DNA from: a virus
Taxonomy: Duplodnaviria > Heunggongvirae > Uroviricota > Caudoviricetes
DNA: 17,256 bases
Virus record (IMG/VR): IMGVR_UViG_2778261160_000003
Location: 1-17,256 of that record
Reading direction: 5' to 3' (one strand)
The notes beneath the pieces were generated by a model. The model ran no database searches, was not told the DNA's origin, and saw nothing but the letters and a program-made list of their open reading frames with translations. The position numbers and the translations under genes are program-made. How positions within the stretch are numbered: the first letter of the stretch is position 1; every line of letters begins with the position of its first letter. This document shows, one piece after another, positions 1,054 to 17,256 of this stretch.

Positions 1054-1078
1054 AAAAAATGCCCTCCAATAGAGAGCA

Positions 1079-1106
1079 TTTTTACTGTATGTATAACCAG
1101 TGTCAA
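1079..1106 (-). promoter_or_regulatory. Putative int promoter with a LexA-box-like CTG-N10-CAG in the spacer
   Basis: Read on the minus strand: TTGACA (revcomp of 1101-1106), 16-17 nt spacer, TAAAAA(T). The spacer contains CTGGTTATACATACAG (plus strand CTGTATGTATAACCAG, 1085-1100). It is 30-50 bp upstream of the int ATG. Confidence 0.35.
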
Positions 1107-1241
1107 TGTATGAAATCCTGCGACCATACATCTCACTGAAGCCATAATGAAGTAGGCTATTCTTTTTGCTATGTGATCATGTAACTTTTGCGGTTAACCT
1201 GTGGCTCATTTTTATTTTAGGCGCAGATATAAAAGCAAAAG

Positions 1242-1433
1242 TTATCGTGAGTTTTTAGTACAGATTTTTTTGGATTTACTAATAGTTCCATCATTGCAAA
1301 CGAATTTGCCATCAGAGGTACAGTGAGAAACACCTCCCTTTTTCCCTGAGCAGGGATAATTTCTAGCATAGGTAGCTAGTGGGTTTAATAACAAAGAACA
1401 TGACAAAACCACAAAAAATACCTTACCAAGCAT
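1242..1433 (-). CDS. Small hypothetical protein with predicted signal peptide and four cysteines
   Basis: 63-codon ORF whose ATG is preceded by GGGAGGAAATT. Hydrophobic N-terminus [20 protein letters not shown], then a Lys/Cys-containing tail. AT-rich. Sits between cI and int on the same strand. Confidence 0.45.
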
Positions 1434-1448
1434 AATTTCCTCCCGGTA

Positions 1449-2018
1449 CTATTTAACATACTTGACTGTTAAACTTATAATTTTACCAATTATTTCAATG
1501 TCTTCTATCTTACATTCGAAGGCTCTGTTTCCACCCTCGACGAAGATTCTTCCACCGGGTAAACGAGTAATGTCACGGATCGTTATTTCGCCATCAATAC
1601 TTATTACCCATTTACCATCACGTATATCATCAAATTCCTTATCACAAATAAATTCAGAATTATTATCTGTGATTACAAAAAGATTCTTGAATGCCGACGG
1701 TAGAAATTCTCTATCGAAAATATAAAAACCGTCTTCACACAAGGCCCCATCAGATAATACATATTTAGCAACTTCCATAGTATTTGTATTACCTGAAGTT
1801 TGCTTTGAACCATGCCCGGTTGTGAGCCAATTAAGCGAGGTGCCTGTTTCAAGGGCGCACTGGATTACCCATTCTGCTGGGAATGAGTCACGCATGTAGC
1901 GTGTGGCGAGTGTACTTTTAGAGATTCCTAAATGATCGCACAACGCCTGTCGAGTCTTGAATCCATAAGCTTCTACCATGCGCTCTATGGCGCCTCGTCC
2001 GCCTTTCTCCAAATTCAT
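1449..2018 (-). CDS. cI: CI-type immunity repressor (phage 186 CI-like)
   Basis: 189 codons from the ATG at revcomp 2016-2018, with GGAG about 5 nt upstream; the ORF track extends to a GTG at 2024. N-terminal HTH-like segment EAYGFKTRQALCDHLGISKSTLATRY. Size and position (between int and the divergent early operon) match 186 CI from memory. Confidence 0.75.
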   Translation of the reverse strand: MNLEKGGRGAIERMVEAYGFKTRQALCDHLGISKSTLATRYMRDSFPAEWVIQCALETGTSLNWLTTGHGSKQTSGNTNTMEVAKYVLSDGALCEDGFYIFDREFLPSAFKNLFVITDNNSEFICDKEFDDIRDGKWVISIDGEITIRDITRLPGGRIFVEGGNRAFECKIEDIEIIGKIISLTVKYVK

Positions 2019-2042
2019 GGTCACTCCAAGTGAACTTTTATC

Positions 2043-2071
2043 TTGACGATTTCACTGTGCGATCGTATGTT
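2043..2071 (+). promoter_or_regulatory. Putative rightward early (lytic) promoter
   Basis: TTGACG (2043-2048), 17-nt spacer, TATGTT (2066-2071), about 70 bp upstream of the first rightward ORF. Flanked by inverted hexamers GTGAAC (2030-2035) and GTTCAC (2078-2083), which could be operator half-sites. Confidence 0.4.
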
Positions 2072-2143
2072 TATGGTGTTCACAAAATACAAACGATCCG
2101 TATTCGTCCTGATTAATCATCATTAAACGAGGAATGTTGCATC

Positions 2144-2365
2144 ATGAGACCTAACATTTCAATCACTCTTACCACGCCTCATGTGACTATTGAACGCTAT
2201 AGCGAGCTGACAGGGCTATCCATCGATACCATCAATGACATGTTGGCTGATGGACGCCTTATCCGTCACCGTCTGCGCAAAGATAAAAAACGCGAAAAAG
2301 TGATGATCAACATAGCAGCAATGACCGTTGATGCGCTTTCAGAATGCAATCTAAACCTTAATTAG
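2144..2365 (+). CDS. Apl/Cox-type excisionase and transcriptional regulator (HTH)
   Basis: 73-codon first ORF of the rightward operon, with AGGAA upstream. HTH-like segment [26 protein letters not shown]. Position equivalent to P2 cox / 186 apl. Confidence 0.65.
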
Positions 2366-2397
2366 TTCGATTCTGAAATACATCAGAGGCATTGACC

Positions 2398-2907
2398 ATG
2401 TTTGATTACCAAGTTTCCAAACATCCACATTTTGATGAAGCCTGTCGTGCATTTGCACTGCGCCACAATCTGGTGCAACTGGCAGAACGTGCAGGCATGA
2501 ATGTGCAGATTCTGCGGAACAAGCTGAACCCAGCTCAGCCTCATTTATTAACCGCACCAGAAATCTGGCTGCTTACCGATCTGACTGAAGATTCAACGCT
2601 GGTAGATGGTTTTCTGGCACAGATTCATTGTCTGCCATGTGTACCGATTAATGAGGTGGCAAAAGAGAAACTGCCACATTACGTCATGAGTGCAACCGCA
2701 GAGATCGGGCGTGTTGCTGCAGGTACGGTGTCTGGCGATGTAAAAACCTGTGCCGGTCGTCGTGATGCTATCAGCAGCATTAACTCTGTAACACGACTGA
2801 TGGCGCTGGCGGCTGTTTCATTGCAGGCCCGTTTACAGGCTAATCCTGCGATGGCGAGTGCAGTTGATACCGTGACTGGCCTCGGTGCTTCATTTGGTTT
2901 GCTGTGA
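2398..2907 (+). CDS. cII: CII-type lysogeny-establishment regulator (phage 186 CII-like)
   Basis: 169 codons from ATG 2398, with AGAGG 8 nt upstream; the ORF track starts at TTG 2392. N-terminus [19 protein letters not shown] and length agree with 186 CII as I recall it. Confidence 0.7.
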
Positions 2908-2914
2908 GGTGCTT

Positions 2915-3115
2915 ATGCTGACGAAAGAACCATCATTTGCATCGCTGCTGGTTAAACAAAGCCCGGCAATGCATTACGGTCACGGCTGGATCATGGGGGA
3001 GGATGGTAAACGCTGGCATCCGTGCCGTTCACAAGATGAATTGCTGGCAGAACTATCTACGAAAAAACGGGGGAACAAATGGCTATTGAAGGCACTGCGG
3101 CGACTGTTCCATTAA
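2915..3115 (+). CDS. Hypothetical small protein (early operon)
   Basis: ATG 2915 with GAGG a few nt upstream, 66 codons. Overlaps the next ORF by 37 nt. No recognisable motif. Confidence 0.4.
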   Translation: MLTKEPSFASLLVKQSPAMHYGHGWIMGEDGKRWHPCRSQDELLAELSTKKRGNKWLLKALRRLFH

Positions 3116-3420
3116 GCCCCGGTGAACGCCTGAATGGACTTAATCACATTGCGGAGTTAAGGGCGAAAGTTTTTGGCCTAAATATTGAGTCAGAGCTTGA
3201 GCGGTTTATTAAAGATATGCGTGATCCATGGGATATCAATAATGAACAAAATAAAAGGGCACTGGCTGCCATATTCTTTATGGCAAAAATTCCAGCTGAA
3301 CGTCATAGCATCAGCATTAATGAGCTGACCACTGACGAAAAGCGGGAGTTGATTAAAGCAATGAATCATTTTCGTGCAGTGGTGAGCTTATTTCCCAGAC
3401 GGCTAACCATGCCGAATTAA
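3079..3420 (+). CDS. Hypothetical protein (early operon)
   Basis: 113-codon ORF in the co-directional early operon. Position is that of the 186 fil/dhr-type early genes, but I cannot confirm similarity. Confidence 0.5.
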   Translation: MAIEGTAATVPLSPGERLNGLNHIAELRAKVFGLNIESELERFIKDMRDPWDINNEQNKRALAAIFFMAKIPAERHSISINELTTDEKRELIKAMNHFRAVVSLFPRRLTMPN

Positions 3421-3487
3421 CCAACTAATGAAATTAATGGCGTAAACCCGCCGGGCATCCCTTTATCTAAATTCAGGAGAATTGATT

Positions 3488-3721
3488 ATGCGTAATATTG
3501 AAACCCTCACGACTAAAACCGGACCGGATGATGCAGGGCTTAATATTTTACTGACAGAGGCTCGTCTGGAAGAACGCCGGGCAAGGGCTGAAGCAATGGC
3601 AGCTCGCCTTGATAGCCTGGCGTGTCATATCACATCCCGCCAACTAAACCACGTCGAAGCGGCAGAACTGCTGCGTGTGACTGCTGAAGCAATCCAGAAC
3701 GAAGCGCAGGAGATCCACTGA
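3488..3721 (+). CDS. Hypothetical protein (early operon)
   Basis: ATG 3488 with AGGAGA 7 nt upstream, 77 codons; the ORF track starts at TTG 3482. Its stop overlaps the next start (TGATG). Confidence 0.5.
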   Translation: MRNIETLTTKTGPDDAGLNILLTEARLEERRARAEAMAARLDSLACHITSRQLNHVEAAELLRVTAEAIQNEAQEIH

Positions 3722-3948
3722 TGGCTGATGCAATGGATCTCGTACAGCAGCGCGTTGAAGAAGAACGCCAGCGCCACATCCGTGCTGCCCGTGCCAAAAC
3801 ACCGGGCGTGTCTCGCGTGCTTTGCATAGAGTGTGAAGCGCCAATTCCGCCAGCACGCCGCCGCGCCATTCCGGGAGTGCAGCTTTGCATTACCTGTCAG
3901 GAAATCGCAGAGCTGAAAGGTAAACATTACAACGGAGGTGCTGTATGA
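3721..3948 (+). CDS. TraR/DksA-family C4 zinc-finger protein
   Basis: 75 codons with CIECEAPIPPARRRAIPGVQLCITCQE (CxxC-N17-CxxC), the pattern of phage/plasmid TraR-like proteins. Start overlaps the upstream stop. Confidence 0.7.
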   Translation: MADAMDLVQQRVEEERQRHIRAARAKTPGVSRVLCIECEAPIPPARRRAIPGVQLCITCQEIAELKGKHYNGGAV

Positions 3949-4802
3949 GCACCATCCTGAAATGGGCGGGTAATAAAACCGCCATTATGCCAGAACTGAA
4001 AAAATACCTTCCTGCTGGCCCGCGACTGGTTGAACCTTTCGCGGGTTCTTGTGCTGTGATGATAGAGACGGATTACCCCAGCTATCTTGTTGCGGATATT
4101 AATCCTGATTTAATCAACCTCTATAAAAAGGTTGCTGCTGATTGCGAGGCGTTTATATCTCGTGCCAGAGCTTTATTTGAGGAAGCAAACAGGGAGGTGG
4201 CTTATTACAACATAAGGCAGGAGTTTAATTACTCCACTGAAATTACTGATTTCATGAAAGCGGTATATTTCCTGTATCTCAATCGTCATGGTTACCGTGG
4301 GTTATGTCGCTATAACAAGAGCGGGCATTTCAACATTCCCTATGGGAATTATAAAAATCCGTATTTCCCTGAAAAAGAAATTCGCAAATTTGCAGAAAAA
4401 GCCCAGCGAGCAACGTTTATCTGCGCCAGCTTTGATGAAACGCTGGCGATGTTGAAGGCGGGGGATGTGGTGTATTGCGATCCGCCTTATTACGGTACGT
4501 TTTCCGGCTATCACACTGATGGCTTCACTGAGGATGACCAGTATCACCTGGCATCCGTTCTTGAACATCGATCATCTGAAGGTCATCCGGTCATTGTTTC
4601 TAACAGTGACACATCCCTGATTCGTTCGCTGTATCGCAATTTCACTCACCACTACATCAAGGCAAAACGCAGCATCGGCGTGTCGGCTGGCAAGAGTAAA
4701 TCTGCAACAGAAATCATTGCTGTTTCCGGGGCGCGCTGCTGGGTGGGATTTGATCCTTCGCGTGGCGTAGATAGTTCTGCTGTGTACGAGGTGCGTGTAT
4801 GA
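3945..4802 (+). CDS. dam: DNA adenine (N6) methyltransferase, Dam family
   Basis: 285 codons. N-terminal KWAGNK, AdoMet-binding-like EPFAGSCAV, catalytic DPPY (CDPPYYGT). Start overlaps the upstream stop (ATGA) and its stop overlaps the A start. Confidence 0.85.
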
Positions 4803-7213
4803 GTCATGACGATATGAGCAACTCTAGCGGCTTTAACGAGGCCGCCGCATCATTTTCATGGAACGGCCCGAAAAAGGCCATTAACCCTTATCTGGACCCG
4901 GCGGAAGTTGCGCCGGAGTCTGCACTTTCAAACCTGATCACTCTGTATGCTGCCGATAACGAGCAGGAACAACTGCGCCGCGAGGCACTGAGTGAGCAGG
5001 TCTGGGAGCGTTATTTCTTTAATGAATCCCGTGATCCTGTCCAGCGCGAAATGGAGCAGGATAAGCTCATTAGCCGGGCAAAGCTGGCGCATGAGCAGCA
5101 GCGTTTTAATCCAGACATGGTCATTCTGGCTGACGTCAACGCCCAGCCTTCCCATATCAGCAAGCCGCTGATGCAACGTATTGAATACTTCAGCAGCCTG
5201 GGCAGGCCAAAGGCTTATTCCCGCTATTTGCGTGAGACGATTAAGCCATGTCTGGAACGGCTGGAGCATGTACGCGACAGTCAGCTATCCACTTCTTTTC
5301 GCTTTATGGCGAGCCATGAAGGGCTGGACGGCCTGCTGATCCTGCCTGAAATGAGTCAGGATCAGGTGAAACGCCTGTCCACCCTGGTAGCTGCGCATAT
5401 GAGCATGTGCCTTGATGCAGCTTGTGGCGATTTGTATGCCACCGATGACGTTAAGCCAGAAGAAATCCGCAAGACATGGGAAAGGGTGGCAGCAGAAACC
5501 CTGCGACTGGATGTCATCCCACCTGCGTTTGTGCAACTCCGCCGGAAAAGAAACCGCCGTAAACCCGTGCCCTATGAACTCATTCCGGGTTCGCTGGCGC
5601 GTATGTTGTGCGCCGACTGGTGGTATCGGAAATTATGGAAGATGCGTTGCGAATGGCGGGAAGAGCAGTTGCGTGCTGTCTGCCTTGTCAGCAAAAAAGC
5701 ATCTCCCTATGTCAGCTATGAAGCCGTGATGCATAAACGTGAGCAGCGCCGTAAGTCGCTGGAGTTTTTCCGTTCTCATGAACTGGTGAACGAAGACGGC
5801 GACACGCTGGACATGGAGGATGTGGTAAACGCCAGCAGCAGCAACCCTGCGCATCGCCGCAATGAGATGATGGCCTGTGTTAAAGGTCTGGAGCTTATCG
5901 CGGAAATGCGCGGTGACTGCGCCGTTTTCTACACCATCACCTGTCCGTCACGTTTCCATTCCACGCTAAATAACGGCAGGCCCAACCCGACCTGGACAAA
6001 TGCGACGGTAAGACAAAGCAGTGATTATCTGGTCGGCATGTTTGCTGCATTTCGTAAGGCAATGCACAAAGCCGGATTGCGGTGGTATGGCGTGCGGGTG
6101 GCTGAGCCGCATCATGACGGTACAGTTCACTGGCACCTGTTGTGTTTTATGCGCAAAAAAGACCGCCGCGCCATCACTGCATTACTGCGTAACTTTGCCA
6201 TCCGTGAAGACCGCGAGGAGCTGGGCAATAACACGGGGCCGCGCTTTCAGTCTGAGCTGATTAATCCGCGCAAAGGAACGCCGACAAGCTACATCGCGAA
6301 ATATATCAGTAAGAATATTGACGGGCGTGGTCTGGCTGGCGAGATCAGCAAGGAAACGGGTAAATCTCTGCGTGATAACGCTGAATACGTTAATGCCTGG
6401 GCGTCTCTGCATCGTGTTCAGCAATTCCGCTTCTTTGGCATTCCGGGGCGTCAGGCTTACCGTGAACTGCGATTGCTGGCTGGTCAGGCGGCAAGGCAGC
6501 AGGGTGACAAAAAAGCAGGTGCGCCGGTACTGGATAACCCGCGCCTTGATGCCATTCTGGCTGCTGCTGATGCTGGTTGTTTTGCCACCTATATCATGAA
6601 GCAGGGCGGCGTACTGGTTCCCCGTAAATATCACCTCATCAGAACCGCTTATGAAATCAACGAAGAGCCGACCGCCTATGGCGATCACGGTATTCGTATT
6701 TATGGCATCTGGTCACCCATTGCAGAGGGCAAGATCTGCACTCATGCAGTGAAGTGGAAAATGGTTCGTAAAGCCGTTGACGTTCAGGAGGCGGCAGCCG
6801 ACCAGGGCGCTTGCGCCCCTTGGACTCGTGGCAATAACTGTCCCCTTGCGGAAAATTTGAACCAACAGGAGAAAGATAAATCAGCTGATGGGGACACCAG
6901 AACGGACATTACCCGCATGGATGACAAGGAGTTGCACGATTACCTGCACAGTATGAGCAAAAAAGAGCGCCGGGAACTGGCAGCAAGGTTACGCCTGGTT
7001 AAGCCGAAACGGCGTAAAGACTACAAACAGCGAATTACAGATCATCAGCGACAGCAGCTCGTCTATGAACTGAAGTCCAGAGGATTTGATGGCAGCGAGA
7101 AAGAGGTCGATTTACTCCTTCGCGGTGGCAGTATTCCGTCAGGAGCAGGCCTGCGTATCTTCTATCGGAACCAGCGTTTGCGGGAAGATGATAAGTGGCG
7201 GAATCTGTATTAA
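4799..7213 (+). CDS. A: Rolling-circle replication initiator endonuclease (P2 gpA-like)
   Basis: 804 codons with an HUH-type motif TVHWHLLCF and a paired-tyrosine motif YIAKYISK (YxxxY), as in P2 A. Sits at the end of the early operon. Confidence 0.9.
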
Positions 7214-7305
7214 TTACGCGGGTTAACAATTCGTGCTCTTAATAATACCAGGCATATCAGGCTGATGAACGTAAAAAAACGTTTTACATCAGTAAGATTA
7301 TTATA

Positions 7306-7325
7306 TACTGTAAATATAAACAGTG
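7306..7325 (+). promoter_or_regulatory. LexA (SOS) box TACTGTAAATATAAACAGTG
   Basis: Perfect CTGT-N8-ACAG with an A/T-rich spacer at 7308-7323, about 40 bp upstream of the ORF starting at 7366. Confidence 0.6.
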
Positions 7326-7365
7326 GTTATGTATACAGTATTGCTTTGGTGTCATAGGAGGAAAG

Positions 7366-7554
7366 ATGCAGGACTATTTTTTGGAGTCTTTGAAGCTCCA
7401 GCGCATTGATTTTTTTCTTAAGCTTGTAGCGGCTAGTGAGTGTAGTGATGAAGAGAAGGGGCTGGCCCTGCAGTGGGTTTCTGAACTGACAGATGAACTC
7501 ATGGCAAAAATCAGAACCCACGAATACAACCGCTCAATGGATGTCATCAGCTGA
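7366..7554 (+). CDS. Small hypothetical protein, first gene of the putative SOS-controlled operon (Tum-position antirepressor candidate)
   Basis: 62 codons, strong RBS AGGAGG 4 nt before the ATG, downstream of the LexA box. In phage 186 the equivalent LexA-controlled position holds the tum antirepressor; sequence similarity not verified. Confidence 0.5.
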   Translation: MQDYFLESLKLQRIDFFLKLVAASECSDEEKGLALQWVSELTDELMAKIRTHEYNRSMDVIS

Positions 7555-7564
7555 GGTGACTTTT

Positions 7565-7798
7565 ATGCGCATTGAAATAATGATCGATAAAGAGCAAAAG
7601 ATTAGCCAGTCTACACTGGACGCCCTTGAATCCGAGCTTTACCGCAATCTGCGCCCCCTGTATCCCAAAACGGTAATTCGTATCCGCAAAGGTAGCTCTA
7701 ACGGTGTGGAACTGACCGGACTGCAACTGGACGAAGAAAGAAAACAAGTGATGAAAATTATGCAGAAGGTGTGGGAAGACGACAGCTGGCTGCATTAA
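7565..7798 (+). CDS. dinI: DinI-family protein
   Basis: 77 codons from ATG 7565, with GAGGTG 5 nt upstream. Begins MRIEIMIDKEQ and ends QKVWEDDSWLH, mirroring E. coli DinI (MRIEVTIAK ... ETWESADDW) in pattern and size. Confidence 0.7.
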   Translation: MRIEIMIDKEQKISQSTLDALESELYRNLRPLYPKTVIRIRKGSSNGVELTGLQLDEERKQVMKIMQKVWEDDSWLH

Positions 7799-7922
7799 GA
7801 AACGTTGCTGGCGTCTGAACTTGTTTCTGGCGTCAGCAAGGTTGAACAACGAGCCCTTGCGAGGCGTTAGCTCTGTAGTGCATGTCTATGCCGCATGAGA
7901 TCGCATGATCGTTTGAGGATCG

Positions 7923-7948
7923 TTTTTGCTAAGGCCCGCCAGAACTGG
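7923..7948 (+). terminator. Rho-independent terminator after the dinI-like gene
   Basis: GGCCCGCCAG / CTGGCGGGC stem with a short loop, followed by TTTTG. Confidence 0.5.
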
Positions 7949-8212
7949 CGGGCTTTTGCGTAGATCATGCAGGTGCATGAAAACCACTACATAAAGCGGG
8001 CAGGCGTGGCGGGGATACGAGCGCGCGCTGAAAAGGTTTAGCTAAATTTTTGTCGATAGGTGGTTTTAGTTGTTATACAAAAGTGTCACTGGTTTTGTTT
8101 TGAGCATTTGTGGTGCTAAAAATATTTTTTTTGGTTCAAAATTACCTTAAAAAGGTTTTTTTGGTGTATGATTGTTTGAAAAGTGGTTCGGTTTTGCCAT
8201 AAGGGTGGTTAG

Positions 8213-9295
8213 ATGATAAACGTTACAAACGAAATGCTCATTGATGTTGTCAGTGATGCTCTTACCGGGAAGAGGGAAAGTCTCCTCATGCGGTTGCGGA
8301 TTATGGCAAAAAAACTAAAAAAAGAATCTCCTGAATTAGCGGGTAAATTAGAAGATTTACTTATTAATACGGGTGGCGCAATTGCAGTCGAAAGGGCTAA
8401 TCCAGTTGTTCCTAAAATAACACCTGTTGATGCGGATACAAGACAAAAGCTGCTAGTTGAAACATATCCTGTGGTCATTGATGTTGAACCTGTTTGGCCA
8501 ACAAAAACTGATGTTCAACTGAATCGATTTGTGGCTGAGTGGGAAATGAAAGAACGCCTTTATAAAGAAGGGTTGCATCCCTCCAAATCTCTTCTTATGG
8601 GAGGACCACCCGGTGTGGGGAAGACTTTGGCTGCAAAGTGGCTCGCTTTTAAACTCGATATGCCATTGTTAACATTAGATCTCGCAAGTGTAATGAGTAG
8701 CTACTTGGGGAAAACGGGTAATAATATTAAGGCAGTCCTCAATTATGCTTCGTCATTCCCTTGTGTACTGCTTCTTGACGAATTTGATGCGATTGCTAAA
8801 AAAAGGGATGATGCAACAGATGTTGGAGAACTAAAAAGATTAGTTACAGTATTATTGCAAGCAATTGATGAATGGCCAAATACGTCTGTTCTTATAGCAG
8901 CAACTAACCATGCGGAGCTGCTTGATCCTGCTGCATGGAGAAGATTCGATCGAGTTATTGATTTTGAATATCCAACACAAGACCTAATGAGAAGATATCT
9001 CTGTTCTAAAAATATTGGAGATAGCTTATCGTACTATATTGCTACAAAACTCGAAAAAGTTTCATATGCAGTTCTTGAGAGAGCTATAAATCAAGCTAAA
9101 AGAAATGCCATTATAGAAGATATTCCTTTAAGTTCAGCTTTAATTGATGAGTTGTTAGATGGCGTGTCACTTGATGATGTTATAAAAAACATGTCAAACA
9201 ACAATGTATCACAAAGAAAAATCGCTTTAGATTTGGGGATTTCAAGGTCACAAGTACGTAAGGTTTTGACGGTTGAGGATGAAGACAATGAATGA
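8213..9295 (+). CDS. AAA+ ATPase with C-terminal HTH-like tail (cargo gene 1)
   Basis: 360 codons. Walker A GPPGVGKT (Lys codon 8621-8623), Walker B VLLLDEFD (8777-8782), sensor-1 IAATNH, second-region-of-homology-like AAWRRFDRV. C-terminal SQRKIALDLGISRSQVRKVL resembles a helix-turn-helix. AT-rich. Confidence 0.85.
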   Translation: MINVTNEMLIDVVSDALTGKRESLLMRLRIMAKKLKKESPELAGKLEDLLINTGGAIAVERANPVVPKITPVDADTRQKLLVETYPVVIDVEPVWPTKTDVQLNRFVAEWEMKERLYKEGLHPSKSLLMGGPPGVGKTLAAKWLAFKLDMPLLTLDLASVMSSYLGKTGNNIKAVLNYASSFPCVLLLDEFDAIAKKRDDATDVGELKRLVTVLLQAIDEWPNTSVLIAATNHAELLDPAAWRRFDRVIDFEYPTQDLMRRYLCSKNIGDSLSYYIATKLEKVSYAVLERAINQAKRNAIIEDIPLSSALIDELLDGVSLDDVIKNMSNNNVSQRKIALDLGISRSQVRKVLTVEDEDNE

Positions 9296-11480
9296 TAAAA
9301 ATATGCTTCTTGGCTATGGTGAAACACTAACTAACCCTGTTAAACTTAACAGAGGTGGAGGTGAAAAGAATAAACCTTACTCTTATTCAGAAAATAAACC
9401 AGTGATATCTGCTCAACTGGAAGAGTTGATTGAGGAAATTAATACCCTTCCATTGTTAGCAATGCCTGAAGGTAAGGCTGTAGCAAAATTTGTTTTGCAT
9501 CCGGCATTCTTAGCAAAAAGTTATTTTCCAGTAAGTCTTTTTGAGCGATTTTCCCTAGAAAGCATAGGCAGTAAGGCTGTAAAAGTAAAACCTAGAAAAG
9601 ATATTAAAAAAAGAGGGCGAAAAGAGGAATACACTACAGCGTGTATTTATGTTTCTGGCAAAAAAGAAAGTTTTCAATCATTCTTAGACTCTGTAAATCA
9701 AGATACCCTAACGAAAGGGCAGCAAAATGATTTTGTCACCTTAGAAAATATTTCAATACTGGAAGTTTCAGATAAAGTAAAAACGATTAATAGCAATGAA
9801 GTTATGAGTATTGAGGTCGCCTTACATACTCCTGATACAAGTTCCTCTATTGTCGATAGTTTTGAAGTTTTTGCTTCGCAAAATGGTGCTGTTATAGATA
9901 AGGCAAGAAGTATAAAAGTTAAGGGGCTAACCTTTATGCCTATTAAGGCTAGTAAAGATGTAGCTTTAAAAGTTGCAGAGTTTTCATTTCTCAGGACTTT
10001 GAGAGAACTTCCTGAATTAAGGCTAAGTGAGCCTGTTATATCACGTTCTGTGATTCAAACATCTAACCTTAGTTTACCATCTGAAGGAGCGGTAAACCCA
10101 CACATAAAGGTTGCCATATTCGATGGTGGATTGGGGATCGATGATTTCAATCCTTGGGTAACAGAGTACACTTTCAACGGTAATGCTAGTACTAATGCAA
10201 AACTTCTTTCTCATGGACAGGATGTCACCTCTACTGTGTTATTTGGTGTTCTTGGCTCTGAAACGGAAAAATTAAGTGTTCCTTATTGTAATATTGACCA
10301 TTATCGTGTACTGGATTCCAATGTTAATAACTCAGATGTCGATCTTTTTGACGTTCTGATCCGTATTAAAAGTGTATTAGAACAAAAAAAATATGATTAT
10401 ATCAATCTGAGCTTAGGACCTAGATTACCTGTTGATGACGATGACGTGCATGTGTGGACCTCAACTCTTGAGGAGATACTTGCATCAGGAGAAACACTTT
10501 GTACTGTCGCGGTTGGAAATGATGGTCAGCTGCCTGCCAAGTTAAATCGAATTCAACCACCTGCTGATTTAGTTAATGGTCTGTCAGTAGGTGCAGCAAC
10601 CTCTTTATCTGATAGTTGGGAAAGATGTTCTTACAGTTGTATTGGTCCTGGACGAAGCCCTGGCTTTGTGAAGCCTGATGGAGTTGCATTTGGAGGACAT
10701 TCTGATGAGCCATTCCAGGTATACAGCCCTATGGTTAATGGTCTTGCCCGCACTGCGGGGACTAGCTTTTCTGCTCCATTAGTCCTGAGGCAAGCAATCG
10801 CGTTAAGTGCTTCTCTAAATTACAACATTACACCACTTACGGCTAAAGCTCTGCTTATACATCATGCGGAGAGCAATAATATCAATCGTGCTGAAGTTGG
10901 TTGGGGACGATTTCCTCATGATCTTAGTGAAGTAATATTTTGTGATGATGATGAAGTTAAAGTTATATATCAAGGTACTTTAAAACCATCACAACACATG
11001 CGAGCACCTATTCCGTTTCCAGATGTACCTATGCGTGGATGTGTAAATTTAAGAGCGACATTCTGTTTTTCCAGTCCTGTTGATGCGGAACATCCTTTGA
11101 ATTATACAAGAAGCGGTCTAGAAGTAACCATGAGAAAAGGTGTTTCAGATAGTTCCGGGTTAACGTTTCCTCTTTTTAATCTAAAAAATGTTTATGCAGA
11201 TGAAAATGAGCAACGTGTTGATGCACATAAATGGGAGACTACGTTAAGAAGTGAACACAAATTTAAACCGAATGAGCTGACAAACCCATGCTTTGATATT
11301 ATCTACTATGGTAGAGACTGTGGTATGCCTATTGATGTTGACGAGTTAGAAGAACTACCATATGTTCTTGTTGTGACTTTATCTGCTGAAGAAATGCCGG
11401 ATTTATATAACCTAATTAGGCAGAAATATCAAACCTTACAGCCTATCCAAGTTCAACAGCAAATTATGTTACGTACTTAA
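9288..11480 (+). CDS. Subtilisin-like serine protease, S8 family, no signal peptide (cargo gene 2)
   Basis: 730 codons from ATG 9288; alternative ATG at 9279, ORF track starts at TTG 9273. Start overlaps the ATPase stop as ATGAATGA. Catalytic motifs in canonical order: Asp in VAIFDGG (10122-10124), His in SHGQDV (10212-10214), Asn in AVGNDG (10518-10520), Ser in GTSFSAP (10764-10766). N-terminus is hydrophilic. Confidence 0.85.
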   Translation: MNDKNMLLGYGETLTNPVKLNRGGGEKNKPYSYSENKPVISAQLEELIEEINTLPLLAMPEGKAVAKFVLHPAFLAKSYFPVSLFERFSLESIGSKAVKVKPRKDIKKRGRKEEYTTACIYVSGKKESFQSFLDSVNQDTLTKGQQNDFVTLENISILEVSDKVKTINSNEVMSIEVALHTPDTSSSIVDSFEVFASQNGAVIDKARSIKVKGLTFMPIKASKDVALKVAEFSFLRTLRELPELRLSEPVISRSVIQTSNLSLPSEGAVNPHIKVAIFDGGLGIDDFNPWVTEYTFNGNASTNAKLLSHGQDVTSTVLFGVLGSETEKLSVPYCNIDHYRVLDSNVNNSDVDLFDVLIRIKSVLEQKKYDYINLSLGPRLPVDDDDVHVWTSTLEEILASGETLCTVAVGNDGQLPAKLNRIQPPADLVNGLSVGAATSLSDSWERCSYSCIGPGRSPGFVKPDGVAFGGHSDEPFQVYSPMVNGLARTAGTSFSAPLVLRQAIALSASLNYNITPLTAKALLIHHAESNNINRAEVGWGRFPHDLSEVIFCDDDEVKVIYQGTLKPSQHMRAPIPFPDVPMRGCVNLRATFCFSSPVDAEHPLNYTRSGLEVTMRKGVSDSSGLTFPLFNLKNVYADENEQRVDAHKWETTLRSEHKFKPNELTNPCFDIIYYGRDCGMPIDVDELEELPYVLVVTLSAEEMPDLYNLIRQKYQTLQPIQVQQQIMLRT

Positions 11481-11485
11481 CAATG

Positions 11486-11509
11486 TGGAGGGGTTCCCCC
11501 TCCTTTATT
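11486..11509 (+). terminator. Rho-independent terminator after the cargo cassette
   Basis: GGAGGGG - TTC - CCCCTCC hairpin followed by TTTATT, 6 nt after the protease stop codon. Confidence 0.5.
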
Positions 11510-11518
11510 AAGCTTTAT

Positions 11519-12133
11519 CTATGTTGATTGTGGGTCATCGTTTATTAAGTTATATTTTTCAAAATGGATAATATTAATTCCTAACCATTCATTAAATTCC
11601 TGTAATCGTTTTTGTAAAGGCATTAATTCATTTCGAACAAACACTCGACTCGCCTTCTCTACATCTCCAAATCCTCCAACATTACTTGGCATAATCCCCA
11701 TCATTTGCGGCGGCACACGGTGTGCCGCCATCATGTCGTCCCGGCTCACGTTCTTGATATTCAGAAACTCATCCTTCGCCGCGACTTCTGACAACGGGAT
11801 GATCTGAAGCCCGTCCTTTTTGCCGTTAGGCGAGTACATAAACAGGTTGCGGAAGTTGCCAGGGCCTTTGGCGCTTTTCATCGCATTGCGGAGGTTGTTC
11901 ACATCCTCCTGGTTCTGCGCGGCATCGGTCATGTACATGATGAAGCCTGCATGACTGCCGTTAATATAATACTTCCGGCGGAACAGCGTGGCGGACTCGT
12001 TGAGCAGGGCTGACGGAATGGCAGAAAGATAACCTGGCAGGCCGTAGATCTCCTGGTTGATGTCAGGTTCCATCAGATGAAAAATGCTGCCTTTCGTGAA
12101 CTGATACGGCTGGGTTGTCATACCGTATTGCAC
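11519..12133 (-). pseudogene. Q: Portal protein (P2 Q-like) C-terminal fragment
   Basis: 204-codon minus-strand ORF with portal-like sequence, in the position and orientation of P2 Q. Far shorter than an intact portal; its 5' part is replaced by tail tube sequence on the opposite strand. Confidence 0.6.
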
Positions 12134-12558
12134 AAACCAGTAGGTATCCAGGTCTAACCCGCGTCGGGTGTATTTTGCCAGTGGATGTGGATCTGGGGCT
12201 TGATGACAGTGCGCTGGACACAGAATTTTCCATTGGTGGTACTGAATTGCTGCTGTTTAAGCAGATGGGCAAAGCCACGGTGGATGGCATCCAGTTGCGC
12301 TTTACCGGCTCTATCCAGCGTGACGATACCGGGGAAGTGCAGGCCGTGGAGCTTGTGGTGCGTGGACGTCACAAAGAAGTGGATTCCGGTGAGTGGAAGA
12401 CGGGCGAAAGCAACACCACCAAAGTGACCAGTACCAACAGCTACGCGAAGCTGACCATCAATGGTGAGGTGCTCTATGAAGTGGACCTTATCAACATGGT
12501 GGAAATTGTGGACGGTGTGGACCTGATGGAAGCGCACCGCAACGCCCTCGGCCTCTGA
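12115..12558 (+). pseudogene. FII: Major tail tube protein (P2 FII-like) C-terminal fragment
   Basis: ORF contains PVDVDLGLDDSALDTEF ... RFTGSIQRDDTGE ... INMVEIVDGVDLMEAHRNALGL, matching my memory of the P2 FII C-terminal half. Recognisable similarity probably begins near 12170. No sheath or upstream tail genes are present. Confidence 0.6.
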
Positions 12559-12612
12559 TGTATCTGAACGGCGCGGGATTCCGCGCCAGAACCCAATTTA
12601 CAGGACAACAAA

Positions 12613-12915
12613 ATGAGCGATAAGCAGACTGAAAAGACCATTCAACTGGATACCCCTATCAAGCGCGGTAAAACAGAAATTACCGAAATTGTGCTGCGTA
12701 AACCGCAGTCCGGTGCGCTGCGCGGTACACGCCTGCAGGCCATTATGGATATGGATGTGAACGCGATGATGACCGTGATCCCCCGCATTTCCAGTCCGGC
12801 ACTGACTGCACAGGAAATCGCAGAGATGGACCCGGCAGATCTCACAGCCATGTCGGTTGAGGTTGTCACTTTTTTGTTGAAGAAGTCGGTGCTTGCCGGT
12901 TTACCGACAGCCTGA
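12613..12915 (+). CDS. E: Tail assembly chaperone E (P2 gpE-like)
   Basis: 100 codons, MSDKQTEKTIQLDTPIKRGKTEITEI ... AEMDPADLTAM, immediately upstream of the tape-measure gene. Confidence 0.8.
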   Translation: MSDKQTEKTIQLDTPIKRGKTEITEIVLRKPQSGALRGTRLQAIMDMDVNAMMTVIPRISSPALTAQEIAEMDPADLTAMSVEVVTFLLKKSVLAGLPTA

Positions 12916-13049
12916 CGGTTGACGATCTGGTGGCAGATATCGCCACCATCTTTCACTGGCCGCCATCCGTTACTGACGTTATGCCGCTGACCGAAGTGCT
13001 GGAATGGCGGTATAAAGCGATTCAGAGAAGCGGGGCCAACGATGAGTGA
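12613..13049 (+). CDS. E+E' fusion product via programmed -1 ribosomal frameshift
   Basis: Slippery heptamer T TTT TTG at 12870-12876 near the end of E. The -1 frame is open from 12876 to a TGA at 13047-13049 (checked codon by codon) and overlaps the T start codon. Confidence 0.6.
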
Positions 13050-13971
13050 TAATAACCTGCGCCTGCAGGTCATTCTTAATGCGGTTGACAAACTCACCCG
13101 CCCATTCCGTGCTGCACAGGCCAGTTCGAAAGAGCTGGCTGGCGCAATCAGAAACTCCCGTGACGCATTAAAGCAACTCAATCAGGCGGGTAACAGCCTG
13201 GAAAAATTTCGCAAGCTGCAGGCCGATAACAAGAAGTTAGGCGACAGGCTGAACTATGCCAGACAGAAGGCTAATTTGCTTAGCTCTGAGCTGGAGGCGA
13301 TGGAACAACCATCACAAAGGCATCTTGTGGCTTTAGGTCGGCAAACGCTGGCAGTCCAACGCCTGGAAGAACAACAAAAATATTTGCAGAAGCAAACGGC
13401 TCTTGTGCGTGCAGAACTGTACCGGGCGGGAATTTCTGCGAAAGATGATGCGGGAGCAACTGCCCGTTTAGCCCGTGAAACATCACGTTATAACCAGGAA
13501 CTTTCGAAACAAGAGGCGCGGCTGAAGCGACTGGGGGAAGCTCAGCGCAGGATGAATGCGGCGCGTGCCAGTTATGCCCGTTCGCTGGAGGTGCGTGATC
13601 GTATTGCAGGTGCCGGAGCCACCACCACGGCTGCAGGGCTGGCAATGGGCGCACCAGTGATGGCGGCAGTAAAAAGCTATACCAGCATGGAAGATGCCAT
13701 GAAAGGTGTGGCAAAGCAGGTCAATGGTCTGCGTGACGATAATGGCAACCGCACCGCGCGTTTTTACGAAATGCAGGATGCCATCAAGGCTGCCAGCGAA
13801 CAGTTGCCGATGGAAAACGGTGCTGTGGACTTTGCTGCACTGGTTGAAGGTGGTGCGCGTATGAACGTCGCAAACCCTGACGACAGCTGGGAAGACCAGA
13901 AACGTGACCTGCTGGCCTTCGCCAGTACGGCGGCAAAGGCGGCAAATGCCTGTGAAGGTCAGTGGTTTTAA
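13042..13971 (+). pseudogene. T: Tail tape measure protein (P2 gpT-like), truncated N-terminal portion
   Basis: 309-codon ORF starting MSDNNLRLQVILNAVDKL with coiled-coil-like Gln/Ala/Arg-rich sequence. Far shorter than an intact tape measure; its 3' end runs into a D-like fragment in another frame. Confidence 0.6.
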
Positions 13972-14092
13972 ACAGCCGATAGATGATGCGGAATGGACCA
14001 TTACGACTCTGACACATACCGTCAGCCCGGATAACGGTTTTACGACCAGTCTGGAGCTTGAAGTGAGGATTGATGATTTCGAAATGGAATGA
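13904..14092 (+). pseudogene. D: Tail protein D (P2 gpD-like) C-terminal fragment
   Basis: 62-codon ORF ending SGFKQPIDDAEWTITTLTHTVSPDNGFTTSLELEVRIDDFEME, directly upstream of ogr as in P2. Fragment only. Confidence 0.5.
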
Positions 14093-14182
14093 TTCTTCGC
14101 AATGGAGAACTTTTAAGTTTGCAAAATGGAATAATACGGTATCATTATTGTGAATGTAGCAAAAATGGGGAGAACTCGAAAA

Positions 14183-14401
14183 ATGATGATTTGCCCACTG
14201 TGTGGAAGTGCCGCCCATACTCGCAGCAGTTTTCAGGTATCTTCATTGACCAAAGAGCGTTACAACCAGTGCCAGAACATTAACTGCAGCCATACTTTTG
14301 TTACTCATGAAACTTTTGTTCGTTCGATTGCAACGCCTAAAGAGTCAAATCCGGTTCAGCCGCATCCAATGAAATCTGGACAGGTGGCGCTCTCTCTTTG
14401 A
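14183..14401 (+). CDS. ogr: Late-gene transcriptional activator, Ogr/Delta zinc-finger family
   Basis: 72 codons from ATG 14183; the ORF track starts at 14150. MMICPLCGSAAHTRSS ... KERYNQCQNINCSHTF closely matches P2 Ogr (MFHCPLCQHAAHARTS ... KERYHQCQNVNCSATF) from memory. Confidence 0.85.
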   Translation: MMICPLCGSAAHTRSSFQVSSLTKERYNQCQNINCSHTFVTHETFVRSIATPKESNPVQPHPMKSGQVALSL

Positions 14402-14423
14402 CGCTGCCGCCATTTTGTCGCCA
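14402..14423. repeat. Candidate attR core, 22-bp direct repeat CGCTGCCGCCATTTTGTCGCCA
   Basis: 21 of 22 identical to 19-40. Begins immediately after the ogr stop codon. Confidence 0.55.
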
Positions 14424-14481
14424 TCGTTAAAAAACAGTGCTTCTAACATCATGATTTTAAACGGTATAAATTTCAGGCAAC

Positions 14482-14524
14482 AAAAAACCCATCAACCTTG
14501 AACCGAAATGGCGGGGTTGATGGG
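14482..14524 (-). terminator. Putative ybjL rho-independent terminator
   Basis: Inverted repeat CCCATCAACC (14488-14497) / GGTTGATGGG (14515-14524) with a T-run on the minus strand (plus strand CAAAAAA at 14481-14487). The 17-nt loop is larger than typical. Confidence 0.4.
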
Positions 14525-14636
14525 CTCCACAAAATGGGGACATCAAAGAAAAGCAGTGGCATTAATTAAGACTGATGCCCTGCGGAAAAGTTCTGCGGTT
14601 GTGCAAAAAAATTTCATTTTCAGGGCAACTTCAGTT

Positions 14637-16322
14637 TTATCCTAATCCTGGCCATACCATGACGATGATTGTCCCTGCCAGCGTCAGCAGGACGTTGGCG
14701 ATTGCGTAGGTGCCCGCATAGCCCAGCGCAGGGATGTTACTGCGAGCTGTATCACTGATGATCTCCATTGCCGGCGCGCAGGTGCGTGCGCCCATCATTG
14801 CGCCGAACAACAGTGCGCGGTTCATTCGCAATACATAAGCACCGAACAAGAAACAGATAACCACGGGCACAAGACTGACAATTAATCCGGCAATCAACAT
14901 CTGACCGCCAATCGCGCCCAGGCCGTTATTAATACCGCTACCGGCGCTCAGACCAACGCCTGCCATAAACACCATCAAGCCGAACTCTTTCACCATGCTT
15001 AATGCACCTTGCGGAATGTAACCGAAGGTCGGGTGGTTAGCACGCATAAAGCCCAGCATAATTCCGGCGAATAACAACCCGGCAGCGTTCCCCATGCCGA
15101 AACTGAATGTGCTGAACTGGAAGGTGATCATCCCGATCATCAGCCCAATAACAAAGAAGGCGCAAAATGCCAGCAGGTCAGTGACCTGGCTGTGAATCGA
15201 GATAAAGCCGATGCGATCGGCGATGGTTTTTACGCGACGGGCATCACCGCTGACTTGTAAAACGTCACCTTTGTTAAGCACGACGTTGTCATCTATCGGC
15301 ATCTCAATCTGGCTACGAATGACGCGGTTAAGGAAGCAACCGTGATCGGTCAACTTCAGTTGTGCGAGACGTTTACCTACAGCGTTATGGTTTTTAACGA
15401 CCACTTCTTCAGTGACGATACGCATGTCGAGAAGGTCACGATCGAAAACTTCTTTACCGTTACGGAAGCTGGGATCGAGTCGGGCATGGGCGTCGGGATA
15501 GCCTACCAACGCTATTTCATCGCCCATTTGTAGCACGGCATCACCGTCTGGATTTGCCAGAATCCCGTTACGTCGAATACGTTCAATGTAGCAGCCGGTT
15601 TGTCGATAAATACCCAGTTCACGCAGATTTTTGCCGTCGGTCCAGGCCACCAGCTCCGGGCCGACGCGATAGGCGCGGATCACCGGTAAATAAACCTTAC
15701 GGTTGGCATCAGTGTCCAGGCCACGTTCGCGGGCGATTTGCTGGGCGCTGGTCTGTAAGTCCTGATGCTGCAATTTCGGCAAGTAACGCGCACCAACAAT
15801 CAAACTCACCAGACCGATTAAATAGGTTAAGGCATACCCGAGGCTCAGATTATCCAGTGCCAGTGAGAGCTGCCTGCTTTCCATGCCGGAATGACGCAGT
15901 GTATCGCCAGCACCGACCAGAACCGGTGTCGACGTCATAGAGCCTGCTAACATACCGGCCGTCAGGCCAATATCCCAGCCAAACAGCTTACCTAACCCTA
16001 AGGCGATCACCAGCGCACTGCCAACCATCACCAGTGCTAACATTAGGTAATTTTTCCCATCGCGAAAAAAAATGGAAAAAAAGTTCGGTCCGGCTTCGAC
16101 CCCGACGCAGAAAATAAACAGCATAAAGCCAAGATTAAGCGCATCGGTGTTAATGCTGAAATGTTGTTGGCCTAATAACAGCGATACGACTAAAACGCCA
16201 ATGGAATTACCCAGTTGGATCGAACCAAGTCGTAACTTTCCGAGACATAGCCCAAGCGCGAGGACCACAAATAATAACAGAATGTAATTCCCATTTAACA
16301 ATTCGGCGACGTTTATATTCAC
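14637..16322 (-). CDS. ybjL: Putative transport protein YbjL (AAE-family transporter)
   Basis: 561 codons; sequence [33 protein letters not shown]... recognised as E. coli YbjL. Multiple hydrophobic segments and central soluble domains. Confidence 0.9.
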
Positions 16323-16591
16323 GGAGGCTAACTTCTTGTTTACTAGTAAGCTGTTGAAAGAAATGGTAATTTACGATAATGTTTTTTACCAGAATTCAGG
16401 GCGCAGATTCATTCAGCGCACCTAAACGATAGTAAAGTAACAATATATTTTACTAGTGTAATCACATTAGGTATCAACGGCTATATGAATTGCGTTGGCC
16501 TATATTAGCATGGAATGCGAAGCGGCTTTATCTTACTGAACGCCACACTGGCGAAAAATGTGTTCGATAGACGCAGTGTCAGGAGGAACGA

Positions 16592-16969
16592 GTGAAACAT
16601 AAACAACGTTGGGCGGGGGCAATCTGCTGTTTTGTCCTCTTCATTGTGGTGTGCCTTTTTCTGGCGACGCACATGAAAGGCGCTTTTCGGGCTGCCGGGC
16701 ATCCTGAAATCGGCTTGCTATTTTTCATTCTTCCTGGAGCAGTCGCCAGCTTCTTTTCACAGCGTAGAGAAGTCCTGAAACCTCTATTTGGCGCAATGCT
16801 GGCGGCACCCTGTTCAATGCTCATTATGCGGCTGTTTTTTTCACCGACGCGCTCATTCTGGCAAGAGCTGGCATGGTTACTAAGCGCGGTGTTCTGGTGT
16901 GCGCTGGGGGCACTGTGTTTCTTATTTATCAGTAGTTTGTTTAAACCACAGCACAGAAAAAATCAGTAA
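16592..16969 (+). CDS. ybjM: Inner membrane protein YbjM
   Basis: 125 codons from GTG 16592, with AGGAGGA upstream. MKHKQRWAGAICCFVLFIVVCLF... recognised as E. coli YbjM. Divergent from ybjL. Confidence 0.85.
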   Translation: MKHKQRWAGAICCFVLFIVVCLFLATHMKGAFRAAGHPEIGLLFFILPGAVASFFSQRREVLKPLFGAMLAAPCSMLIMRLFFSPTRSFWQELAWLLSAVFWCALGALCFLFISSLFKPQHRKNQ

Positions 16970-16990
16970 AGCCCTCAACGCGAGGGCTTG
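16968..16990 (-). terminator. Hairpin between convergent ybjM and grxA, probable grxA terminator
   Basis: AAAGCCCTC - AACGC - GAGGGCTTG hairpin. The T-rich tract lies on the minus strand (plus strand AAAAAATCAGTAAA at 16956-16969). Confidence 0.4.
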
Positions 16991-16998
16991 TCAGACGA

Positions 16999-17256
16999 TC
17001 AGGCGTCCAGATTTTCTTTCACCCATGCAGCAAAATCGGTATAGCCGCCGATATGTTGCTGATCGACAAAAATCTGCGGCACGGTTTCTACGGGTTTACC
17101 TGCCTTTTGTTGTAGATCTTCTTTAGTGATCCCTTCCGCACGAATATCTACATACTGATACTGAAAATCATCGCGTTCATTGCTCAATTTCTCAGCCAGA
17201 TCTTTTGCACGCACACAGTAAGGGCAACCCGAACGACCAAAAATAACGGTTTGCAT
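16999..17256 (-). CDS. grxA: Glutaredoxin 1
   Basis: 85 codons, MQTVIFGRSGCPYCVRAKDLAEKL with the CPYC active site, recognised as E. coli GrxA. Start codon is the last three bases of the window. Confidence 0.9.
   Translation of the reverse strand: MQTVIFGRSGCPYCVRAKDLAEKLSNERDDFQYQYVDIRAEGITKEDLQQKAGKPVETVPQIFVDQQHIGGYTDFAAWVKENLDA

Follow-up and report, generated by a model that had tools for sequence, protein, structure and literature searches.

An IetAS-like ATPase–protease cassette in the anti-phage hotspot of a P2-like prophage remnant

IetAS systems pair an AAA+ ATPase with a subtilisin-like protease of the S8 family. According to the statements in PMC13069673 and PMC8562856 that cite the original work, they were first described as plasmid-stabilizing toxin–antitoxin modules with the protease as the toxin and the ATPase as the antitoxin. 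Here, we analyzed a gene pair of this kind, designated ietA and ietS, which occupies positions 8213-11480 of a 17,256-nucleotide stretch of tailed-phage DNA (IMG/VR record IMGVR_UViG_2778261160_000003, positions 1 to 17,256; hereafter, the window). We consider it likely that the pair is toxin–antitoxin-like anti-phage cargo of the IetAS type, carried by a decayed E. coli prophage in the interval that separates its replication gene (gpA) from its portal gene (gpQ), and that it works along the lines proposed in the last section.

Several related systems have been studied. In ietHAS, protease activity is needed for phage defense and a plasmid with a mutated ietA could not be constructed; the same work, from 2026, still describes the mode of action of IetAS as unknown (PMC13069673). 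An AAA-ATPase/subtilisin pair of Mycoplasma is a functional toxin–antitoxin, in which the toxic protease is neutralized by the ATPase and deletion of the ATPase alone is lethal (PMC8562856). The IetAS of B. cereus acts by abortive infection and becomes toxic upon expression of the SPbeta gene yosG (bioRxiv 10.1101/2022.08.27.505566). The IetAS of E. coli ECOR52 provided limited protection alone and showed synergy with Zorya II. A literature search for a paper on IetAS structure or mechanism found none. The gpA–gpQ interval of P2-like prophages, in turn, is a hotspot and reservoir of anti-phage systems (Rousset et al. 2022, PMC9122126).

The gene pair and its kinship with IetAS

The cassette consists of two co-directional genes, as had been read from the sequence in the original prediction, whose stop and start overlap by 8 nt (ATGAATGA at 9288-9295).

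8213-9295, + strand: ietA, an open reading frame of 360 amino acids encoding a classic-clade AAA+ ATPase
9288-11480, + strand: ietS, 730 amino acids from its ATG, encoding a cytoplasmic S8 (subtilisin-like) serine protease

The open reading frame listing also gives an alternative start of ietS at 9273, with which the product has 735 amino acids.

The pair had been proposed as a candidate anti-phage AAA+/S8 cassette of IetAS-like architecture, with the question left open whether it is an Iet homologue. We found that IetA matches the PADLOC profile hidden Markov model (HMM) for IetA, PDLC02196, with an E-value of 6.7e-84 (280.5 bits; protein 7-355 on profile 5-371 of 374). The same model gives 297.8 bits for the IetA of the P2 hotspot catalogued by Rousset et al., 284 for a Vibrio homologue, and 280 for a Leptospira homologue. 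IetS matches the IetS profile PDLC02197 (1.8e-48, 163.4 bits, protein 25-617 on profile 27-633 of 749) and five more PADLOC IetS sub-models, six in all, among which PDLC02199 extends to residue 717. In terms of PADLOC-type criteria, both profiles match, the genes are adjacent and point in the same direction, and the ATPase comes first. Because both proteins match these profiles and IetA scores about as high as its counterpart in the published P2 "ietAS", the comparison identifies the pair as a member of the IetAS family, that is, an Iet homologue and not an undescribed ATPase–protease system. These profiles and the hotspot position also support the anti-phage assignment, in which defense by this subtype is presumed by analogy with its relatives. 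The searches for AAA and Peptidase_S8 domains suggested in the original prediction recovered Pfam AAA in IetA (5.4e-30) and Peptidase_S8 in IetS (2.9e-17).

The motifs reported earlier for both genes (GPPGVGKT, LLLDEFD, ATNH, and AAWRRFDR in the ATPase; the complete aspartate, histidine, asparagine, and serine tetrad in the protease) were all located, with the codons of the Walker A lysine and the catalytic serine exactly where they had been placed. The features of ietA are as follows.

Amino acids 71-77, + strand: invariant PVDxDxR in the N-terminal helical domain of IetA, from alignment
8603-8626, + strand: Walker A motif GPPGVGKT (amino acids 131-138), with the K137 codon AAG at 8621-8623
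8699-8710, + strand: pore-loop-like motif S-[Y/L/F]-L-G
8768-8788, + strand: Walker B motif LLLDEFD (amino acids 186-192)
8900-8911, + strand: sensor-1 motif ATNH (amino acids 230-233)
8930-8953, + strand: arginine-finger motif WRRF within AAWRRFDR (amino acids 240-247)
About 9200-9268, + strand: C-terminal helix-turn-helix of IetA (sub-threshold helix-turn-helix family matches; HTH_23 is recorded for homologues)

Walker A, Walker B, sensor-1, WRRF, and PVDxDxR are invariant in an alignment of five IetA sequences with 43-48% identity, in which the pore-loop-like S-[Y/L/F]-L-G-K-T-G and the C-terminal helix-turn-helix are likewise kept. Among sequences in the PDB, IetA matches the AAA domains of VAT/Cdc48/p97 (1e-41 to 1e-35); the search found no IetAS structure, only generic AAA domains and a weak match of subtilisin E. 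The protease gene carries the following features.

9288-9329, + strand: invariant N-terminal peptide of IetS (amino acids 1-14), from the alignment of homologues
Amino acids about 60-157 and 173-240, + strand: two N-terminal alpha/beta modules, from the predicted structure
Amino acids about 275-545, + strand: catalytic domain with the S8 motifs D/H/N/S
10122-10124, + strand: catalytic D279 in the motif IFDGG (amino acids 277-281)
10212-10214, + strand: catalytic H309 in the motif SHGQD (amino acids 308-312)
10518-10520, + strand: catalytic N411 in the motif GNDG (amino acids 410-413)
10764-10766, + strand: catalytic S493, codon AGC, in the motif GTSFSAP (amino acids 491-497)
Amino acids about 555-725, + strand: C-terminal beta-sandwich, from the predicted structure

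More than 1000 relatives of IetS are detectable, and those of full length (723-742 amino acids, 42-89% identity) come from Proteobacteria, Leptospira, and Sulfurovum. Across 37 homologues with 42-87% identity, D279, H309, N411, and S493 are invariant, as are M1, N5, G9, G11, E12, and L14 of the N-terminal peptide. An alignment with subtilisin E puts D, H, and N in the correct place. Judged from the complete and invariant motif sets, both the ATPase and the protease appear to be catalytically competent.

Pfam reported no family for amino acids 1-271 or 545-730 of IetS. In the AlphaFold model of IetS (predicted local distance difference score 82, predicted template modeling score 0.86), two N-terminal alpha/beta modules precede the catalytic domain, and a C-terminal beta-sandwich follows it. 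The top PDB fold matches of the whole model are ProN-Tk-SP, KP-43, S1P, and PCSK9, which are pro-subtilases or subtilases with C-terminal beta domains, while the N-terminal region alone best matches subtilase prodomains. Furthermore, residues 173-240 show the strand-helix order beta-alpha-beta-beta-alpha-beta, which is the order of the I9 prodomain. IetS is thereby predicted to keep a subtilase-prodomain-like module and looks like a zymogen. The first 14 residues form short strands at moderate confidence in the full-length model and are disordered when residues 1-271 are modeled alone. Because of this difference, the models suggest that the peptide docks on the catalytic domain, on the C-terminal domain, or on IetA.

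The arrangement itself is already known, as it is catalogued in the published table of the P2 hotspot. System 7 in Table S5 of Rousset et al. 2022, annotated with Peptidase_S8 and AAA and as "ietAS (Gao et al, 2020)", comprises 400 loci and is the seventh commonest in that hotspot. It shares with the window pair the hotspot, the two-gene architecture, the protein lengths (IetA, 360 amino acids), the best PADLOC IetA model, the C-terminal helix-turn-helix, and a recognizably conserved N-terminal peptide of IetS. In contrast, the two IetA proteins are only 47% identical and the IetS proteins only 37% (first 399 amino acids), and because of these low identities, the window cassette is, by its sequence, a distinct allele family occupying that slot. 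With 11 of 5426 complete E. coli genomes carrying it, it is also far less common. Some of the proteins associated with the Rousset data set belong to the immediate relatives of the window: WP_001154434 and WP_001217575 are encoded upstream of the cassette in the near-identical relative L001, WP_001513123 is the IetA of the near-identical copy L014, and WP_021532214 falls in the 90% cluster of the window IetS.

On the plasmid pTiC58, the AAA and S8 genes at NC_003065 97873-101373 are the sole such pair in the 70-119 kb region examined, and we infer from this that they are the founding IetA/IetS (Yamamoto et al. 2009). As in the window, the ATPase precedes the S8 peptidase, and both proteins match the PADLOC IetA and IetS models. 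In the alignment to IetA that had been suggested as a check, the ATPases are clearly homologous, with 40% identity and an E-value of 4e-43 over the AAA core only; the pTiC58 ATPase is shorter (328 amino acids), and no match to the C-terminal helix-turn-helix of the window IetA was seen in it. The pTiC58 protease is longer (836 amino acids) and, unlike the window IetS, has PDLC02198 as its best PADLOC sub-model.

Other systems share parts of this design. The plasmid genes named iteS by PGAP show 25-27% identity to the window IetS, in the catalytic domain alone. The ietHAS system (Liu-DS4, Nucleic Acids Res 2026, PMC13069673) has the IetA/IetS core in common with the window but contains an additional, essential SNF2-type helicase gene. 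There is none in the window cassette, whose limits are set by the terminators and the neighboring DinI-like and portal genes. The Mycoplasma module (PMC8562856), likened to the window pair by its description only, has an AAA ATPase of 353 amino acids upstream of an S8 protease of 757 amino acids with no intergenic gap; it is chromosomal in Mollicutes, with no phage-defense role reported.

The pairing of the two genes is widespread. An IetS homologue lies directly 3' of IetA in 73 of the 75 species-level loci with enough downstream DNA, and the paired loci span Acidobacteriota, Myxococcota, Chloroflexota, Planctomycetota, Bacillota, Actinomycetota, and others. The same pairing is found in mobile-element contexts of Vibrio, Leptospira, and Pseudomonas. 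The two loci in which no IetS homologue was detected (L037 and L081, about 4080-7050) both come from metagenome-assembled genomes; ietA is followed by a single 100-amino-acid open reading frame in L037 and by several short overlapping ones in L081, and the absence of IetS may result from decay or from frameshift errors. In the collection of sequenced phages, none carries the window subtype, the best match being 40.5% identical, in Enterobacter phage phiT5282H. Full-length IetS homologues with 30-40% identity are present in the phage records NC_049429.1 (16848-19001), OR818368.1, and OP503990.1. The phages bearing them are the 32-kb Enterobacter phiT5282H, with an adjacent AAA ATPase gene, Pseudomonas PfAC08 (14.4 kb; a filamentous Pf phage, judging from its name and size), and several Paenibacillus larvae phages.

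Boundaries, leader, and candidate operator

The impression that the block is AT-rich, gained by eye in the original prediction, was borne out by calculation: the guanine-plus-cytosine (GC) content is 0.382 in 8213-11480, compared with 0.533 in gpA and 0.488 in the remaining window. The following elements delimit this compositional island and provide it with a leader and a terminator of its own.

7931-7957, + strand: upstream intrinsic-terminator-like hairpin with a GC core at 7933-7953, followed by TTTT
7958-8212, + strand: AT-rich leader with GTGGT repeats, a candidate -10 hexamer, and a Shine-Dalgarno sequence
8060, 8110, 8183, and 8205, + strand: the four GTGGT repeats of the leader
8167-8172, + strand: candidate -10 hexamer TATGAT
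8202-8207, + strand: Shine-Dalgarno sequence GGGTGG
11487-11509, + strand: downstream terminator-like hairpin and T-rich tail (stem-loop 11487-11503, 7-bp stem with 6 GC pairs)

The bracketing hairpins had been predicted as well. The downstream one is in place, between the stop of ietS and the convergent portal gene fragment (portal stop at 11519); it matches in the terminator scan and folds at -13.5 kcal/mol (z -2.2). The upstream one is real, but its position is 7931-7957; the interval first given (7923-7948) was shifted to the left by about 9 nt. As RNA, it folds at -23.4 kcal/mol (z -4.2), and none of 200 shuffled sequences was equally stable. This hairpin closes the early/DinI-like transcription unit and forms the left edge of the cassette region. 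Rfam and tRNA scans gave no match within the cassette.

GTGGT occurs four times in the window leader as compared to 0.66 expected from dinucleotide shuffles (P about 0.0025, post hoc). The leaders of Silvania and Xenorhabdus have in common with it the block TTGGTGTAT[GC]ATT, TGGTT, and the Shine-Dalgarno sequence, and the conserved block includes the plausible -10 hexamer TATGAT. A sigma70 consensus scan of the leader reported no promoter; we nevertheless infer one within 7958-8212. A perfect 10-bp palindrome, TTTAGCTAAA, sits at 8037-8046, on the left border of the variable region. As a candidate operator it was dropped, being kept in near-identical copies only and not in distant ietAS leaders.

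A survey of the 250 nt 5' of ietA in 79 independent loci (L016-L095; about 2750-3000 in most) revealed a much stronger motif. There are 27 occurrences of GTGGAC[TG]A and 23 of its reverse complement T[AC]GTCCAC, compared with about 0.5 each in dinucleotide shuffles; the counts in control regions were 0-1 far upstream and 0 within ietS. Inverted 8-mers of this type are carried by 26 of the 79 loci, from many phyla. Their spacing from the ietA start is fixed, with forward copies at about -162, -85, and -9 and reverse copies at about -130 and -53. Many loci have TTGACA between the -85 and -53 sites, so that the -53 site occupies the -35/-10 spacer, and promoters such as those of L028 and L069 contain the inverted pair GTGGACTA-N25-TAGTCCAC. 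In gammaproteobacterial ietA leaders, the variant GTGGTA[AC] was found 14 times against 1.6 expected. By its sequence layout, the 8-mer is a putative operator placed over a sigma70 promoter, and it is probably bound by the C-terminal helix-turn-helix of IetA. Because this operator-like layout coincides with a conserved helix-turn-helix in IetA, it suggests that IetA represses its own operon, as in type II toxin–antitoxin operons. A literature search for the 8-mer returned primer noise only and no description of it.

Prophage setting and persistence of the cassette

In the window, the remnant of a P2/186-like prophage is flanked by rcdA on one side and rybB/ybjL on the other. Its left part holds, in order, the integrase, the CI repressor, early genes, a Dam methylase, gpA, a small open reading frame, a DinI-like gene, and the cassette. 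To the right of the cassette follow fragments of the portal and tail-tube genes, gpE, fragments of the tape-measure and gpD genes, and ogr, and then the host genes rybB and ybjL.

4799-7213: replication gene gpA, on the left side of the hotspot
11519-12133, - strand (convergent): portal gene (gpQ) fragment, the last 204 codons (portal_PBSX 2.5e-78)
12115-12558: tail-tube (FII) fragment, fused to the portal fragment at about 12181
12613-12915: gpE, a feature of the remnant
13042-13971: tape-measure fragment, likewise a feature of the remnant
14479-14557, - strand: RybB small-RNA gene (Rfam RF00110, 105 bits), adjoining the right end of the remnant

The window prophage (1-14400) is a non-functional remnant. 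Because rybB directly adjoins its right end, the attachment site may lie at or near this gene. The cassette is located between gpA and the portal gene, which confirms the predicted P2-type hotspot, and annotated relatives show the same layout.

The flanking sequences are present in about 1230-1280 of the 5426 complete E. coli genomes mentioned above. With positions 7900-11600 as the query, matches to cassette-free prophages span only query positions 1-130/158, and on the left, their homology to the window stops at about 8029-8057; on the right, it stops inside the portal gene, in its 3' end. Given the position of the left end, the cargo brings most of its own leader.

Copies of the cassette are 99.6-100% identical across relatives. 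Some of these copies (L006-L008, L010, L011, and L013) lie in prophages that appear complete and use other attachment sites. The others (L001, L009, L012, and the window) lie at the ybjL site in remnants with differing deletions, and these remnants all retain intact ietAS, the CI repressor, and the replication region. The exact proteins are on record in E. coli, Salmonella, and E. albertii, in at least 1000 contigs for IetA and 618 contigs for IetS.

Two deviating situations were inspected among the near-identical copies. In L010 (8988-9525 of GCA_974496725.1), an otherwise identical copy, ietA is disrupted by the loss of 1 bp in each of two A7 runs, with ietS intact; this copy, considered as a natural antitoxin knock-out, most likely reflects a homopolymer sequencing error. 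In L014 (5155-6267 of NZ_CP018995.1) and in NZ_CM176496.1, IS421 is inserted between the ietS stop and the portal gene, with both cassette genes intact. These copies were rejected as knock-outs, since the insertion lies downstream of ietS. Neither L010 nor the IS421 genomes bear on the toxin–antitoxin model.

Proposed mechanism and alternative explanations

Our analysis covers the identities and the architecture of the two genes; the toxin–antitoxin and abortive-infection steps of the following model are borrowed from related IetAS systems, and the remaining steps are our own reasoning. IetS would be synthesized as a cytoplasmic, zymogen-like subtilase and retain its prodomain-like module. An IetA hexamer would spend ATP on holding IetS inactive by remodeling or unfolding it, using the pore-loop-like motif and the arginine fingers, and the C-terminal helix-turn-helix of IetA would repress the operon. 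IetS would then be freed, either by a phage product or because the phage causes IetA to lose its activity. The freed protease would cleave cellular or phage proteins, and growth would halt before the release of progeny, sparing the lysogen population and the prophage. A more specific version is a tentative proposal that we regard as possible but would not bet on: IetS never sheds its prodomain, the IetA unfoldase holds it inactive, perhaps by gripping the N-terminal peptide, IetA represses the operon at the GTGGAC[TG]A operator, and the phage diverts or inactivates IetA.

Several points weigh against the overall model. How IetA restrains IetS and what IetS cleaves are entirely our own reconstruction. 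No experiment on the window subtype was found in the literature, and the tested systems that can be traced (B. cereus, ECOR52, Mycoplasma, and the Ti plasmid) have different or unidentified sequences. The window IetS is not BLAST-similar to the pTiC58 protease (E 0.043); with hhalign, the proteases align at 54% probability (E 1.3e-4, 423 columns) over the catalytic and C-terminal domains only, while their N-terminal regions do not align. Because the alignment is confined to these domains, the N-terminal region of IetS seems, from sequence, to be specific to the window branch. The pair also stays below the NCBIfam cut-offs, with 247.7 bits for IteA (NF042959; 2e-73) against 510 and 122.8 bits for IteS (NF042956; 1.4e-35) against 900. 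However, the P2 IetA from the system labeled ietAS by Rousset et al. is below the IteA cut-off as well (253.1 bits), and hence the NCBIfam models represent a narrower branch of the IetAS family. Their narrowness explains why RefSeq/PGAP gives the window genes the generic names "AAA family ATPase" and "S8 family peptidase". Last, the strong motif GTGGAC[TG]A is missing from the window leader, which holds only the degenerate GTGGT repeat, and for this reason the link of the 8-mer operator to the window cassette is weak.

The pair might instead be mainly an addiction module, which stabilizes the prophage by post-segregational killing, as IetAS does for the Ti plasmid, and provides no meaningful defense in its host. 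The history of IetAS as a plasmid-stabilizing toxin–antitoxin, as far as the citing papers report it, speaks for this explanation, as do the limited protection obtained with ECOR52 IetAS tested alone and the survival of the intact cassette in at least four differently deleted ybjL remnants besides the apparently complete prophages. Yet this persistence fits equally well with selection for defense or with deletions that spare the early region, the gpA–gpQ locus is documented as an anti-phage reservoir, and other IetAS systems protect by abortive infection. Stabilization and defense are, in addition, compatible roles. We regard addiction as the main function as unlikely. The explanation that the pair is a protease–chaperone couple for phage morphogenesis or host physiology, with no role in conflict, could draw on the maturation proteases encoded by phages and on the proximity of the portal gene. 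It is hardly credible given that more than 99% of the P2-like prophages sharing the flanks have no cassette and that the low-GC island has a leader and a terminator of its own. For their part, P2-type phages rely on gpO as their scaffold/protease, and intact relatives encode gpO elsewhere. Moreover, the pair also occurs on plasmids, integrative elements, and filamentous and Paenibacillus phages, and its best HMM matches are defense-system models.

The original prediction had cast the ATPase as a sensor or regulator of the protease effector. In the form of a sensor or activator, IetA would sense a phage cue and unfold or remove the prodomain of IetS, until then a harmless zymogen. A prodomain-like module is indeed predicted next to the catalytic domain, the nearly invariant N-terminal 14 residues of IetS could act as a handle, and IetA is a classic-clade AAA+ protein with a pore-loop-like motif, akin to unfoldases (Cdc48/VAT, proteasomal ATPases, and FtsH). 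An inert zymogen, however, would not fit the genetics of related systems, in which the protease alone is toxic and ATPase losses or mutations are either lethal or unclonable, and we give this explanation little chance. Because of the same genetics, and by analogy, we favor an ATPase that restrains the protease over one that switches it on. In these genetics, the ATPase has the part of an antitoxin instead of that of a sensor or activator (PMC13069673, PMC8562856).

For genome scans, the value of the IetAS cargo described here is small, as defense HMMs recognize IetAS and the arrangement in the P2 hotspot is present in a published table. For studies of how the family works, the window provides a compact, intact IetAS allele that is borne by E. 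coli and has its own leader, which makes it convenient. The predicted prodomain-like module of IetS would offer a testable handle on the restraint of a protease toxin by an AAA+ protein, and the promoter-overlapping operator of other ietA operons a handle on operon regulation. The survival of the cassette in several independently decayed remnants is a small case of defense or addiction cargo outliving its phage. If true, the reading of IetS as a zymogen that retains its prodomain and of IetA as its unfoldase and the repressor of the operon would be the first mechanistic model for IetAS.

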